64,000 bases of DNA from Algoriphagus marincola HL-49 (GTDB lineage: Bacteria; Bacteroidota; Bacteroidia; Cytophagales; Cyclobacteriaceae), in the NCBI GenBank assembly GCA_001314815.1, contig LJXT01000001.1:7301-71300 (forward strand), read 5' to 3'. Both the position numbers and the translations under genes were made by a program. Shown piece after piece: positions 9,339 to 64,000 of this stretch. The notes under the pieces are model-generated. The model had not been told where the DNA came from. It saw nothing but the letters and a program-made list of their open reading frames with translations, and ran no database searches. How positions within the stretch are numbered: position 1 is the first letter of the stretch; each line of letters opens with the position of its first letter.

Positions 9339-10514
9339 TCAAGTCTTTGATTTCACTTTTTTCAAAAATTCAGACAACCCTACAGCAAAAGTTCCCTCTG
9401 AAATAGGAAACTCTTCTTGGCCTGCATAGATAAAATACCTATGGGTAGCCTTAATATCCGCAGCTCCTGTAGAAAAGCCTTTGGATAATTTTGGACTTAG
9501 CGTCCGTTTGATTTCAATAGCCCAAAGTTCACTACCTAGCTGAATGATCAAGTCCAACTCCGCTCCTGCTGATGTACGATAGAACCCATAGTCCGCATTT
9601 TTTGGCAAAACGGATAGAATATTCTCAATCACAAAACCCTCCCAACTAAAACCCAATACCGGATGGCCGAGCAGGCTATCAAAGTTATTGATTTGAAGAA
9701 GTGTATGGGTAATGCCTGAATCCCGTATATACACTTTTGGAGTTTTCACCAAGCGCTTTCGCACATTTGCAGTCCAAGGACGCAAGGACCTGACTAATAG
9801 TAGATCTTCCAAAAGCTCCACATAGGACTTGACCGTGGGGGAACTGAGATCAAGACTTGCCCCAAACTTAGAGAAGTTGATCAGCTGTCCCTGCTCATGT
9901 GCGAGCATGGTCCACAACCTTCTCAGGCGATTGGTAGGTACAAACTGGGCAATTTGAGGAATATCTCTTTCCAGATAAGTAGTGATGAAATTTTGTCTCC
10001 AAGTCATACTGGACTTGTCCGAACTCGCCAAAAACGAGTCAGGAAACCCTCCCCGAAGCCAGAGCTTTTCTAAATTATCTTCATCACTTCCCACTTCTAA
10101 GATGGAGAAGCCAGCTAACTCTTCATATGCTATTCGTCCTGCCAGGCTCTCAGATGATTGTCGAATCAGCTCGAGAGAAGCCGATCCTAGAATCAGGAAT
10201 TGGCAAGAGCGCAAGCCATCTTTCCTATTTCGATCAATAACTCCCCTCAAAACTTGGAATAGATCCGGCATACGCTGGATTTCATCTAGGATGATGAGTT
10301 TGCCATCGTTCAACTCAAAGTATTGCTCTGGTTCTGCCAGTTTGGCTCGGTCACTTGGACTTTCCAGGTCAAGGTAAATGGACTCCTGATCAAAGTTTTC
10401 AGCCAAAGCTTGTGCAAGCGTAGTCTTTCCCACTTGCCGCGATCCTAAGATGGCAATGGCTGGGAAATCCGGCATTAATTCTTCGAGTCTTTTGTAAAGC
10501 AATCGTTTAATCAT
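9339..10514 (-). CDS. AAA_14 ATPase with winged helix and DUF4143 (PD-(D/E)XK-like) domain
   Basis: Walker A GSRQVGKT, Walker B IILDEIQ, ESLAGR, LRGGFP, TPKVYIRDSG, C-terminal ELDL..AIEIK. Confidence 0.92.
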   Translation of the reverse strand: MIKRLLYKRLEELMPDFPAIAILGSRQVGKTTLAQALAENFDQESIYLDLESPSDRAKLAEPEQYFELNDGKLIILDEIQRMPDLFQVLRGVIDRNRKDGLRSCQFLILGSASLELIRQSSESLAGRIAYEELAGFSILEVGSDEDNLEKLWLRGGFPDSFLASSDKSSMTWRQNFITTYLERDIPQIAQFVPTNRLRRLWTMLAHEQGQLINFSKFGASLDLSSPTVKSYVELLEDLLLVRSLRPWTANVRKRLVKTPKVYIRDSGITHTLLQINNFDSLLGHPVLGFSWEGFVIENILSVLPKNADYGFYRTSAGAELDLIIQLGSELWAIEIKRTLSPKLSKGFSTGAADIKATHRYFIYAGQEEFPISEGTFAVGLSEFLKKVKSKT

Positions 10515-10551
10515 CCTTGCAAATTTAAAATCATATTTTAAATTTGCAAGG
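10515..10551. promoter_or_regulatory. Perfect 17-3-17 palindrome containing the promoter of the ATPase gene
   Basis: CCTTGCAAATTTAAAAT-cat-ATTTTAAATTTGCAAGG. On the minus strand TTG-N19-TAAATTTG ends 5 nt before the ATG. Confidence 0.7.
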
Positions 10552-61435: not shown

Positions 61436-62037
61436 ACCAACGTGGATTTTCTAAGAAAGCACTCGAAGACTTCGATCTAATCGATCAAGCCGTTGAGGAA
61501 AAAGATCAGCAAGCTTATGCAGCTTTGATGAAGCGCTACAAGAAGGCTGTTTACTTCATGATTCTCAAGATGATCCGAGATGCCGATGATGCTGAAGATT
61601 TGACCATGGAGGCATTTGCCAAAGCCTTTAAAAACCTACATCGATTCAAAAAAGACTACACCTTTTCCACTTGGCTTTTCCGGATTGCAACCAATAATGC
61701 CATCGATTTTATCCGTAAGAAAAAGCTCAAAACCATGAGCCTAAACACCACCATGTCCGATGATAGTGGCAACTCAGTGACCATCGATGTGGAAGACGAT
61801 GACAACAATCCTCAGGATGAATTCATCAAGTCTCAGCGGATCGAAATGGTGCGGATTTTTGTCGATAAGCTTCCAGCCAAATACCGCAAACTGGTTCAAC
61901 TTCGATACTTTGATGAGCTTTCTTACGAAGAGATCGCCCAAGAACTCGAAAAACCACTCGGAACAGTCAAAGCACAATTGCACCGCTCCCGAGAACTATT
62001 ATATGAAATCGCCTCCGGCAAAGAAAAGCACATCTGA
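61426..62037 (+). CDS. ECF RNA polymerase sigma factor
   Basis: DAEDLT.EAF.KAF, FSTWLFRIATN, LSYEEIAQEL..PLGTVKAQLHR. Confidence 0.95.
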   Translation: MELNQRGFSKKALEDFDLIDQAVEEKDQQAYAALMKRYKKAVYFMILKMIRDADDAEDLTMEAFAKAFKNLHRFKKDYTFSTWLFRIATNNAIDFIRKKKLKTMSLNTTMSDDSGNSVTIDVEDDDNNPQDEFIKSQRIEMVRIFVDKLPAKYRKLVQLRYFDELSYEEIAQELEKPLGTVKAQLHRSRELLYEIASGKEKHI

Positions 62038-62681
62038 TGAACTCCGGCACCCAGCTGATTCTTTCCTATTTTCCTAATCTAACTGAAAAGCAGATTGAGC
62101 AATTCGATCGCTTACAGGAACTCTATGCTGATTGGAATGCAAAAATAAATGTGATCAGCCGCAAGGACATGGATCAGTTTTACATCCATCATGTCCTTCA
62201 TTCCTTGGGAATAGCCCAAGTCATGCGATTTCAGCCTGGCACCAAAGTACTCGATATCGGTACGGGGGGAGGATTTCCGGGAATCCCATTAGCCATTCTT
62301 TTTCCAGAAACTCACTTTCACCTAGTGGATTCGATTGGAAAAAAAATTACAGTTGTGAAAGAGGTAGCCAAAGCCCTTAAGCTCAGCAATGTAGAAGCCC
62401 AACAAGCCCGGGCGGAGACATTAGTACGGAAATATGATTTTGTGATCAGCCGCGCCGTGACCCGTATGATCAATTTTTACCCTTGGGTCAAAGGAAAAAT
62501 CAAGCGAGAGGATTTTAATGAATTTCCCAATGGCGTCCTTTACCTCAAAGGAGGCGATGTGGATGAGGAAATGGAGGAAACAGGCAAATCCTATGTAACC
62601 TACCACTTAAGTGACTATTTCAAGGAAGATTTTTTTGAGACCAAAAAGGTGGTCTATATGCCCTGGGAGGACAAAAGGTGA
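62037..62681 (+). CDS. rsmG: 16S rRNA m7G527 methyltransferase
   Basis: WNAKINVISRKD, HVLHSL, LDIGTGGGFPGIPLAI, DSIGKK, SRAV, LKGG. Confidence 0.97.
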   Translation: MNSGTQLILSYFPNLTEKQIEQFDRLQELYADWNAKINVISRKDMDQFYIHHVLHSLGIAQVMRFQPGTKVLDIGTGGGFPGIPLAILFPETHFHLVDSIGKKITVVKEVAKALKLSNVEAQQARAETLVRKYDFVISRAVTRMINFYPWVKGKIKREDFNEFPNGVLYLKGGDVDEEMEETGKSYVTYHLSDYFKEDFFETKKVVYMPWEDKR

Positions 62682-62684
62682 CAG

Positions 62685-62772
62685 ATTGTACCTTTTAAGA
62701 TACAGTTTGATCCTAAAATTGTACTTTTAAAGATACAATTCAACCCTTTTACTGTATCTTTGAAGGTACAGT
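62685..62772. promoter_or_regulatory. Three 22-bp imperfect palindromes at exact 33-bp period; the third contains the -7 element and overlaps the GTG start
   Basis: ATTGTACCTTTTAAGATACAGT (62685), ATTGTACTTTTAAAGATACAAT (62718), ACTGTATCTTTGAAGGTACAGT (62751); TATCTTTG at 62755-62762. Confidence 0.85.
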
Positions 62773-63967
62773 GGAAAACCTTTTAAAAAGATATCAATCG
62801 TTATTATCCAAGGTTCAACTTGGGTTTGAGAGAAATTTATCTTCCCAAATCAATTGGGAAGCAAGAGCTATTGGACTAAAAGGAGCACGTGGAACAGGGA
62901 AATCCACACTCATGCTTCAGCAAATCAAGAAGCGGGGGGATTTCTCCAAATCGGTATACATTTCATTAGATGACCTCTATTTCAAAAATAATACTGTCCT
63001 AGATACTGCTGAGCAACTTTATCGTGACGGGATCCGAAGACTTTATTTGGATGAAGTTCATAAATACCATGATTGGCAGCGGGAAATAAAAAATTTATAT
63101 GACTTCTACCCGGATCTAAAGCTGATCATTTCTGGATCTTCTATCCTTGAGCTTCAGAAGTCTAGTGTTGATCTAAGTCGAAGAGTTCTGTTTTATGAAT
63201 TACCGAGCCTTTCTTTTCGGGAATTTTTAGAATTAAAATATGGCATCATAATTCCAAAATTCACATTAGAAGAACTACAGAAAAATCATATTTCAATCGC
63301 ACAAAGTATTAAAGAAAAGCTAGATTCACCTCTCACCTATTTTCGTGAATTTCTAGAATATGGCGCTTATCCTTACTTTATGGAGGGGGTAACAGATTTC
63401 GGCTATCGGCTTCAGCAGGTCGTCAATGTAGTAATCGATTATGATTTACCTGAGGCCAAAGATATCTCGGTGGGCACCCAAAGCAAACTGAAAAAGCTTC
63501 TTTTTATACTCTCAGAATCAGTTCCCTTCACTCCGAATATTTCAAAACTTGCAACCCAACTTGAAACCACAAGGCCAATCCTATTGGAGATGCTCTATTT
63601 ACTTGAAGAAGCGCGTCTAGTCCGGAATCTGAGGTCCGCTAGCAAAGGAACTTCACTGCTTAATAAGCCTGAAAAAATTTATCTCTCAAACACCAGTTTG
63701 ATTCATAGTTTTTCTGAAAAAGGAAGAAATCAAGGAAATCTCAGAGAAACATTTGCCATTGACCAACTTCAAAATGCAGGCTATTCAGTCACATTCCCGA
63801 AACAGGGTGACTTTCTGGTTAATGAAACTTATTTATTAGAAATCGGTGGAGCGGGGAAAGGTTCGTCTCAGGTATCAAATTTTGAAAACCATCTTATCTT
63901 CTCAGACGATTTGGAAATAGGCTGGGGAAGAAAGCTCCCACTATTTTTACTTGGATTAATGTATTAA
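62771..63967 (+). CDS. AAA_14 ATPase with winged helix and DUF4143-like C-terminal domain
   Basis: Walker A GARGTGKS, Walker B LYLDEVHKY, SGSS, LSRR, YGAYP, PNISKLA..L, KPEKIYL, RETF, DFLV...EIGG.GK. Confidence 0.92.
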   Translation: MENLLKRYQSLLSKVQLGFERNLSSQINWEARAIGLKGARGTGKSTLMLQQIKKRGDFSKSVYISLDDLYFKNNTVLDTAEQLYRDGIRRLYLDEVHKYHDWQREIKNLYDFYPDLKLIISGSSILELQKSSVDLSRRVLFYELPSLSFREFLELKYGIIIPKFTLEELQKNHISIAQSIKEKLDSPLTYFREFLEYGAYPYFMEGVTDFGYRLQQVVNVVIDYDLPEAKDISVGTQSKLKKLLFILSESVPFTPNISKLATQLETTRPILLEMLYLLEEARLVRNLRSASKGTSLLNKPEKIYLSNTSLIHSFSEKGRNQGNLRETFAIDQLQNAGYSVTFPKQGDFLVNETYLLEIGGAGKGSSQVSNFENHLIFSDDLEIGWGRKLPLFLLGLMY

Positions 63968-64000
63968 GTCCCCAAAATGGGTGTTGTCCAATTTCAAAAT

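Follow-up and report, generated by a model that had tools for sequence, protein, structure and literature searches.

In a stretch of 64,000 nucleotides (nt) from the genome of Algoriphagus marincola HL-49 (contig LJXT01000001.1, positions 7,301 to 71,300; hereafter the window), the gap between rsmG and a gene for an AAA+ ATPase of the AAA_14/DUF4143 superfamily is filled by three 22-bp palindromic boxes. The box array is a real, non-random feature of this DNA, and it represents one instance of a family-wide architecture in which phased palindromes lie in front of ATPase genes as their putative private operators. We consider it likely that the three boxes serve the gene that follows them, with its own protein binding there and controlling its own promoter, probably through repression by ATPase-linked dimers. 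The coordinates of all features are given in Table 1.

Re-read directly from the sequence, the three imperfect palindromes begin at 62685, 62718 and 62751, as the first-pass annotation had proposed. The 33-bp period that it claimed is indeed exact, the two 11-nt spacers (ttgatcctaaa and tcaaccctttt) are unrelated to each other, and box 1 begins just after the rsmG stop codon (TGA at 62679-62681, followed by 'cag'). The box consensus is found at three places only in the window (6 hits over both strands versus 0.01 expected from shuffles), its core TGTAY-N8-RTACA gives 3 hits versus 0.04 expected, and the whole 3.8-Mb assembly is matched by the consensus at these three places only. Boxes upstream of unrelated genes, which would have pointed to another regulator, were looked for genome-wide, and the boxes are present nowhere else in the genome. 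A dispersed intergenic repeat (repetitive extragenic palindrome or miniature inverted-repeat transposable element) and a regulon motif were ruled out on the same grounds, given that there are 3 local copies only and that looser cores correspond to unrelated single hits. The boxes are slightly asymmetric (62685-62772), one arm reading TGTAC and the other TGTAT, and this asymmetry is not conserved in the orthologue.

Table 1. Features of the rsmG-ATPase region (window coordinates) and box cores of the five paralogues found elsewhere in the same genome.
Feature	Coordinates	Strand	Description
rsmG	62037-62681	+	16S rRNA m7G methyltransferase; upstream housekeeping neighbour, stop 3 nt before box 1
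Box 1 (distal)	62685-62706	none	ATTGTACCTTTTAAGATACAGT; arms ATTGTACCTTT and TAAGATACAGT; 22-bp imperfect palindrome
Box 2 (middle)	62718-62739	none	ATTGTACTTTTAAAGATACAAT; arms ATTGTACTTTT and AAAGATACAAT
Box 3 (proximal)	62751-62772	none	ACTGTATCTTTGAAGGTACAGT; arms ACTGTATCTTT and GAAGGTACAGT; overlaps the GTG start by 2 nt
Predicted -7 promoter element	62755-62762	+	TATCTTTG; fits the Bacteroidota consensus TAnnTTTG; inside box 3
ATPase gene	62771-63967	+	398-aa AAA+ ATPase / winged-helix / PD-(D/E)xK-like protein; divergent AAA_14-DUF4143 member with PADLOC PDC-S01 match
AAA+ ATPase core	62864-63250	+	Residues 32-160; Walker A G38xRGxGK44(T/S)T, Walker B D94-E95, Arg pair R137-R138
Predicted winged helix-turn-helix	63461-63688	+	Residues 231-306
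Recognition helix	63572-63610	+	Residues 268-280, from the model
Residue 269	63575-63577	+	Pro in the window protein; co-varies with half-site base 5
C-terminal small alpha/beta domain	63689-63964	+	Residues 307-398; conserved E326, D347, E357, K363
Paralogue C181			Box core TGTAAA-N6-TTTACA
Paralogue C116			Box core TTGCACA-N6-TGTGCAA
Paralogue C99			Box core GCACTG-N3-TAGTGC
Paralogue C117			Box core TGCTTT-N6-AAAGCA
Paralogue C113			Box core AGTTTTAAAACA

The private character of the sites is seen best within this single genome, which holds five paralogues with 39-45% identity to the window ATPase and thus six copies of the family in all. Each of the five has two to three palindromes immediately upstream of its ATG, and their sequence differs from one paralogue to the next. 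The cores of C181, C116, C99 and C113 are confined to their own promoter in the genome, where each is present in two copies 32-33 bp apart, while the loose core of C117 is found at its own promoter in two copies separated by 58 bp and has four additional genomic matches. The total number of AAA_14 matches in the genome is 19, of which 15 are strong.

The theme recurs around further members of the superfamily. Most of the AAA_14 genes that we inspected (contigs C57, C142, C144, C146, C105, C162, C172 and others) have distinct upstream palindromes or repeats of their own, e.g. GTGATTGTAATCAC and GTGAATATATTCAC at C146, or AGTTTCT...AGAAACT, present twice, at C142. The window itself contains a canonical AAA_14/DUF4143 gene (9339-10551, minus strand; PF13635 match 4e-45) with a 37-bp perfect palindrome, CCTTGCAAATTTAAAAT-atg-ATTTTAAATTTGCAAGG, which includes TAAATTTG and the end of which adjoins the ATG; the canonical branch of the superfamily thus shows this theme as well. 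Two family paralogues only about 5 kb apart (L005 and L020, G002:C103) have the box types TTGCTTA and GCACT...AGTGC, respectively, and would illustrate orthogonal sites at close range.

To place the array in its family, loci were pooled from related genomes, 80 species genomes (mostly Bacteroidota, with a few Treponemataceae, Lentisphaeria, Chlorobiota and Balneolales) and 80 metagenome contigs. A search of the 120 nt upstream that left spacing unconstrained yielded two or more related palindromes in 68 of 101 loci, compared to 7.3 in shuffles and 1 in a stretch inside the coding sequence (CDS), and two sharp peaks of spacing emerged, at 32-33 bp (61 loci) and 64-66 bp. The pooled set consisted of 173 homologous loci, for which the box threshold was the score reached by about 1% of shuffles. 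This threshold was passed by 110 loci, with a spacing of 33 bp in 74 and of 32 bp in 33 of them, and with two boxes in 54, three in 45 and four or more in 11; the control, a CDS stretch of the same length, was without a box in 100 of these 110 loci. Written in a common register, the box has nTTG[C/T]NNNnnn in the left arm and nnnNNN[G/A]CAAn in the right, where TTG/CAA is family-wide and positions 5-8 are lineage-specific. The variable positions of the two arms (5-8 and 15-18) lie about 10 bp and hence roughly one helical turn from each other, which is what a putative dimer contacting successive major grooves should show.

Two relatives document how well the array is kept. Both L002, which shares 90% protein identity and is also located downstream of rsmG, and L103, which shares 67% and has a different genomic context, retain three boxes of the type seen in the window, at unchanged positions relative to the start and without any indel. 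Between L001 and L103, identity amounts to 0.83 in the arms and to 0.27 in the spacers. The reading frame of another locus, L008 (G013:C30), contains a TAA stop, and this homologue is probably a pseudogene; palindromes resembling the boxes can still be made out in front of it (TGTATAccaagaTGAACA).

If the boxes are read by a protein, the ATPase is the obvious candidate. A conserved neighbour gene was sought in the 101 loci and none was found, the largest neighbour family being present in 8 of the 101, so that the ATPase is the only protein travelling with each private box type. A conserved partner gene acting as a separate regulator was thus ruled out for these loci. The boxes might nevertheless be operators of a separate transcription factor encoded in trans, with the ATPase not binding at all, but we regard this as very improbable. 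Palindromes of the TGTA...TACA type are used by many regulators, and binding by the ATPase is deduced here from comparisons of sequences. Such a factor would have to be reconciled with a box type that occurs at this promoter only in the genome, each paralogue would need a dedicated factor of its own, yet no gene is conserved beside the unit, and the sequence of the boxes appears to follow the recognition helix of the ATPase itself.

This last point is based on covariation between protein and site. In a set of 88 sequences, residue 269, which follows the invariant R268 directly at the N-terminal end of the recognition helix, tops all positions in mutual information with a half-site base (base 5, z = 12.3). 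Among the pooled loci, 28 of the 32 with Asn269 have TTGC, and 45 of the 48 with a residue other than Asn have TTGT (counts 28/4/3/45), an association with a Fisher probability of 4e-14 when kinship is ignored. The same is seen among near-identical helices, with INRNT accompanied by TTGCTTA and both INRTT and INRAT by TTGTTTA. As raw mutual information in the enlarged set is dominated by phylogenetic signal, an analysis of matched distant pairs and a test on independent pairs were added. The former compares pairs with the same box to pairs with different boxes after matching them for overall identity (33-52%), and here residue 269 shows the largest same-box excess identity of all 398 positions (0.48); residues 259 and 267 of the helix-turn-helix (HTH) are also listed in this analysis. 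A tree calculated with the helix columns left out has about 10 changes of N269 and about 8 of C5.

The position of the boxes relative to the promoter hints at what binding might do. The perfect match to the -7 consensus that the first-pass annotation had claimed inside box 3 is present there, and the overlap of this box with the GTG at 62771 was likewise found. The GTG start is supported as it is the first possible start in frame, by the N-terminal alignment (VENLL here versus ME.LL in all paralogues) and by the 90% orthologue, which has an ATG at this position. Across the family, 85 of 101 upstream regions contain TAnnTTTG (10.7 expected). Its G is mostly 18-21 nt upstream of the start, so that the motif runs into the TTG of the proximal left arm, and the end of the proximal box is usually 0-3 nt before the start. 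The window gene is atypical in this respect, with a -7 match centred in the proximal box, 8 nt before the GTG (family mode 18-21 nt), while the position of the box is the same. A -7 match this close to the GTG predicts a very short or absent leader, and the near-leaderless mRNA suggested for this gene is a prediction from the -7 position alone. The orthologue L002 has TACCTTTG at the -7 place. With the proximal site extending over the -7 element, the short leader and the probable start of transcription, its position is that of a repressor site.

Taken as an autoregulatory module, the unit has two-fold symmetric sites that overlap its own predicted core promoter or start, these sites are specific to its own promoter and outside any wider regulon, and the protein has a DNA-binding domain, a predicted winged helix, with specificity residues tracking the site. 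We infer binding, the stoichiometry of one dimer per box, cooperativity, the sign of the regulation and the transcription start, and the following mechanism might be envisaged. The 398-aa product would bind each 22-bp palindrome as a dimer via its winged helix, and the period of 32-33 bp (about 3.1 turns) would set successive dimers on roughly one face of the DNA, where dimers on neighbouring boxes could be linked through their AAA+ domains. Once occupied, the proximal box would cover the -7 element and the start codon, and the gene would shut off its own transcription. Such autorepression might keep the amount of a potentially harmful ATPase-nuclease low and buffered, and the nucleotide state of the protein, or its titration by another DNA ligand, could relieve the repression. 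A hint of inducibility comes from the AAA_14/DUF4143 gene TT_P0211 of Thermus thermophilus, which was up 6.6-fold with plasmid DNA present (PMC4406477).

Several observations weigh against autoregulation by the ATPase or limit how far it can be taken. About 36% of the pooled loci are below the box threshold. The phylogenetically corrected test is underpowered, with 5 independent pairs on well-supported branches (3 concordant, 0 discordant, 2 unchanged; p = 0.25). In the enlarged set, columns 125, 131 and 149 of the ATPase domain rank as high as residue 269 in raw mutual information, and one clade (SRN-SLLNYL, with TGTTGT boxes) violates the rule that Asn goes with C. The -7 match of the window gene lies in the centre of the box, whereas most relatives have it at the left edge, and the 67% relative L103 has TACCTTTA at the -7 place; this renders the promoter assignment uncertain, and we regard it as plausible but not secure. 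Finally, that the boxes mediate repression rather than activation is probable, as judged from their position only. The covariation of residue 269 has to be seen as supportive of self-binding and not as conclusive, and the argument from private sites is the stronger one. In sum, the first-pass reading of the boxes as phased operators of an oligomeric protein, most simply the ATPase itself, is supported by the comparative evidence from layout, private boxes, the missing partner gene and residue 269.

The genomic setting of the unit suggests mobility. Orthologues of rsmG are present in 19 of 19 related genomes, and rsmG is directly followed by dnaE in five genomes of the same genus (L186, L189, L190, L193 and L194). 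An insert made up of the boxes, the ATPase gene and about 110 nt separates rsmG from the conserved dnaE promoter region in this genome as well as in G005. When window 62682-64000 and C42:71268-71447 were compared with the five empty rsmG-dnaE sites, neither a target-site duplication nor terminal (inverted) repeats were seen; the intergenic region is too variable for exact borders. Mobile-element ends were thus rejected as an identity for the palindromes: an insertion is evident, but target duplication and terminal repeats are lacking. The family as a whole is patchy and multi-copy, occurring in 10 of 31 related genomes, and boxes and gene behave as a self-contained, horizontally moving single-gene cassette.

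Palindromes at such a place could also act as hairpins in RNA or DNA, be it as a terminator or attenuator of rsmG, as a 5' structure in which the start codon is hidden, or as ends or recombination sites of a mobile cassette. The folding energies would agree with this, as each box folds at -4.2 to -11.8 kcal/mol and the whole 102-nt region at -32.5 kcal/mol (z = -6.2), and so would the insertion of the unit between rsmG and dnaE and its patchy, multi-copy distribution. We nevertheless give hairpins hardly any credence. The stems are AT-rich and without a U-tract, no terminator-like site was found, and no Rfam family was matched apart from sub-threshold microRNA noise. A common half-site per locus, the strict 32-33-bp phasing and the overlap with the -7 element are features at the DNA level that hairpins do not require, the distal boxes are upstream of the predicted promoter, and boxes are present on one side of the gene only, with none of the duplications or terminal repeats of a mobile cassette seen at the insertion. 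A terminator or RNA element was thus ruled out by the terminator and Rfam scans, and the strong regional fold is a by-product to be expected of repeated palindromes. The reverse complement of box 3 is nearer to box 1 than box 3 itself is, so boxes 1 and 3 are able to pair and form the long hairpin behind the regional energy.

The protein encoded downstream of the boxes is a divergent member of its superfamily. AAA_14 (PF13173) is matched at residues 32-153 well above the Pfam threshold (94.2 bits versus a cut-off of 27, E = 8.2e-27), while DUF4143 (PF13635; residues 236-339) remains below the gathering score (26.9 versus 28.1 bits, E = 4.7e-6); ATPase 1 of the window reaches 153.7 bits for DUF4143. 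By the Pfam rule, the protein studied here (ATPase 2) thus belongs to a divergent sister subfamily and is no canonical member. A weak winged-helix match to Rrf2 covers residues 254-305, and six PDC-S01 models of PADLOC were matched, the best being PDLC04787 (8e-27, residues 35-346). A search of the PDB by sequence found no relative of the ATPase.

An AlphaFold2 model calculated on 88 homologues (predicted local distance difference test (pLDDT) 93, predicted template modelling score (pTM) 0.92) shows an N-terminal helix, the AAA+ core (32-160), a helical lid (166-229), the winged helix and a small alpha/beta domain (307-398). Within the winged helix, helices 234-249 and 257-263 precede the recognition helix 268-280, and the wing is formed by strands 284-287 and 302-305. 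Walker A (G38, G41, G43, K44 and T46), Walker B (D94 and E95) and R137/R138 are invariant in the alignment of 88 sequences, and in the family alignment E326 and E357 are invariant as well, with D347 and K363 nearly so. Modelled alone, the C-terminal domain has a pLDDT of 90, and its top hits in Foldseek are all PD-(D/E)xK nucleases, among them I-Bth0305I, Hjc and tRNA-splicing endonuclease; the hits are weak (E about 0.1, template modelling (TM) score about 0.44) and the nuclease-like motif, ExGGxxK, is non-canonical. The domain may well adopt a PD-(D/E)xK nuclease fold in the model. The loop after the sensor-1 strand (residues 121-133, window 63131-63169) is modelled at a pLDDT of about 78, and its columns 125, 129, 131 and 133 have high mutual information with half-site positions 5-7; this loop might touch DNA as well, in the way of the initiator-specific motif of Orc1 and DnaA, or the signal could be phylogenetic only.

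Searched at full length, the model has DnaA (2hcb) as its top Foldseek hit, followed by RuvB, RFC, ORC and Avs STAND, all at TM-scores of only 0.25-0.38, so that the search returned only generic AAA+ hits with low TM. The ranking still raises the question of initiators. Archaeal Orc1/Cdc6 proteins pair with origin recognition boxes (ORBs), and DnaA autoregulates via DnaA boxes in its own promoter; as predicted for the window protein, both are AAA+ ATPases with a C-terminal (winged) HTH beside repeated cognate sites. By analogy, the ATPase might bind its boxes mainly as an assembly or anchoring platform in the style of Orc1/Cdc6 at ORBs or of DnaA boxes, with any effect on transcription being secondary. 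An ATP-dependent oligomer would form with a dimer per box, giving a tetramer or hexamer on two to three boxes, and would then remodel, scan or cut DNA.

Arrays of two to three boxes kept at a fixed period across phyla, the invariance of the Walker A, Walker B, Arg and nuclease-like residues, and loci with boxes 25-70 nt upstream of the start and away from the -7 element are in line with such a platform. We still judge it quite unlikely to be the main role. In most loci, the proximal box adjoins the start and shares sequence with the -7 element, so that binding must affect transcription there, and the TM-scores to initiators are low. Up to fifteen strong AAA_14 members per genome, each with private boxes that differ from those of the others, make an origin function unlikely. 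The window protein further departs from Orc1/Cdc6 and DnaA in its extra nuclease-like domain and in the two-fold symmetry of its sites. Autoregulation by the ATPase and a platform role may also coexist.

The superfamily to which the window protein belongs is abundant and poorly understood. In the literature, DUF4143/COG1373 appears among the PD-(D/E)XK families that have no assigned function (PMC3424549). PDC-S01, which PADLOC lists as a candidate for phage defence, is one of 145 untested 'guilt-by-embedding' candidates (bioRxiv 10.1101/2024.01.29.577857); it reportedly ranks fourth by frequency among the predicted defence systems of prokaryotes, with copies in the tens of thousands (PMC12988326). 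One PDC-S01 representative was studied in E. coli B and was not among the candidates protecting against T4, T5 or T7 (bioRxiv 10.1101/2024.09.26.614923). Our literature search found no published description of operators or autoregulation for DUF4143/PDC-S01. Phased private operators as a family-wide architecture thus appear to be undescribed. Autoregulation via promoter palindromes is in itself known; distinctive here are an array with a fixed period of 33 bp, specificity that is private to each lineage, and a single protein that would unite regulator, ATPase and nuclease-like domain.

PDC-S01 has so far been without a known ligand, target or phenotype, and a lineage-specific DNA site that is most likely read by the protein would offer a first experimental handle. 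Assays of binding, ATPase and nuclease activity would gain a defined substrate, and a specificity residue is predicted as well. In addition, the family would constitute a natural set of orthogonal protein-operator pairs, six of them in this genome alone, and private sites would explain how 15 or more paralogues of a potential nuclease are maintained in one genome without cross-talk. A bolder extension, which we consider rather unlikely, would regard AAA_14/DUF4143 (PDC-S01) proteins as a large class of sequence-programmable AAA+ ATPase-nucleases, in which a lineage-private DNA 'address' is read for the most part by one residue or a few residues of the recognition helix such as 269. The 33-bp array at the own promoter would then be a platform for an ATP-dependent oligomer with one dimer per box, serving as autorepressor site and self-reference at the same time, until foreign DNA or a phage cue draws the protein off or remodels it, derepresses the gene and unleashes the nuclease. 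If this were true, the fourth most common predicted 'defence system' would combine sensor, regulator and effector in one gene.

Compared to known systems, the window protein shares with AAA_14/DUF4143 (COG1373, PDC-S01) the AAA_14 domain, the match to PDC-S01 profiles and the design of an ATPase with a probable PD-(D/E)xK-type C-terminus (PMC12988326; Steczkiewicz 2012, PMC3424549). It is likewise multi-copy and patchy, and differs as a divergent subfamily with a sub-threshold DUF4143 and the motif E-x-G-G-x-x-K instead of the usual ExK. In its proposed regulation, the unit resembles C-protein/C-box control of restriction-modification systems, in which operator palindromes are located on the own promoter of compact defence or toxin modules. 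Palindromes on the own promoter, system-private specificity and the presumed buffering of a dangerous nuclease are common to both. In contrast to C-proteins, regulator and effector would here be one polypeptide with an AAA+ motor, and the array consists of two to three or more full palindromes at a fixed 32-33-bp period instead of two adjacent sites.
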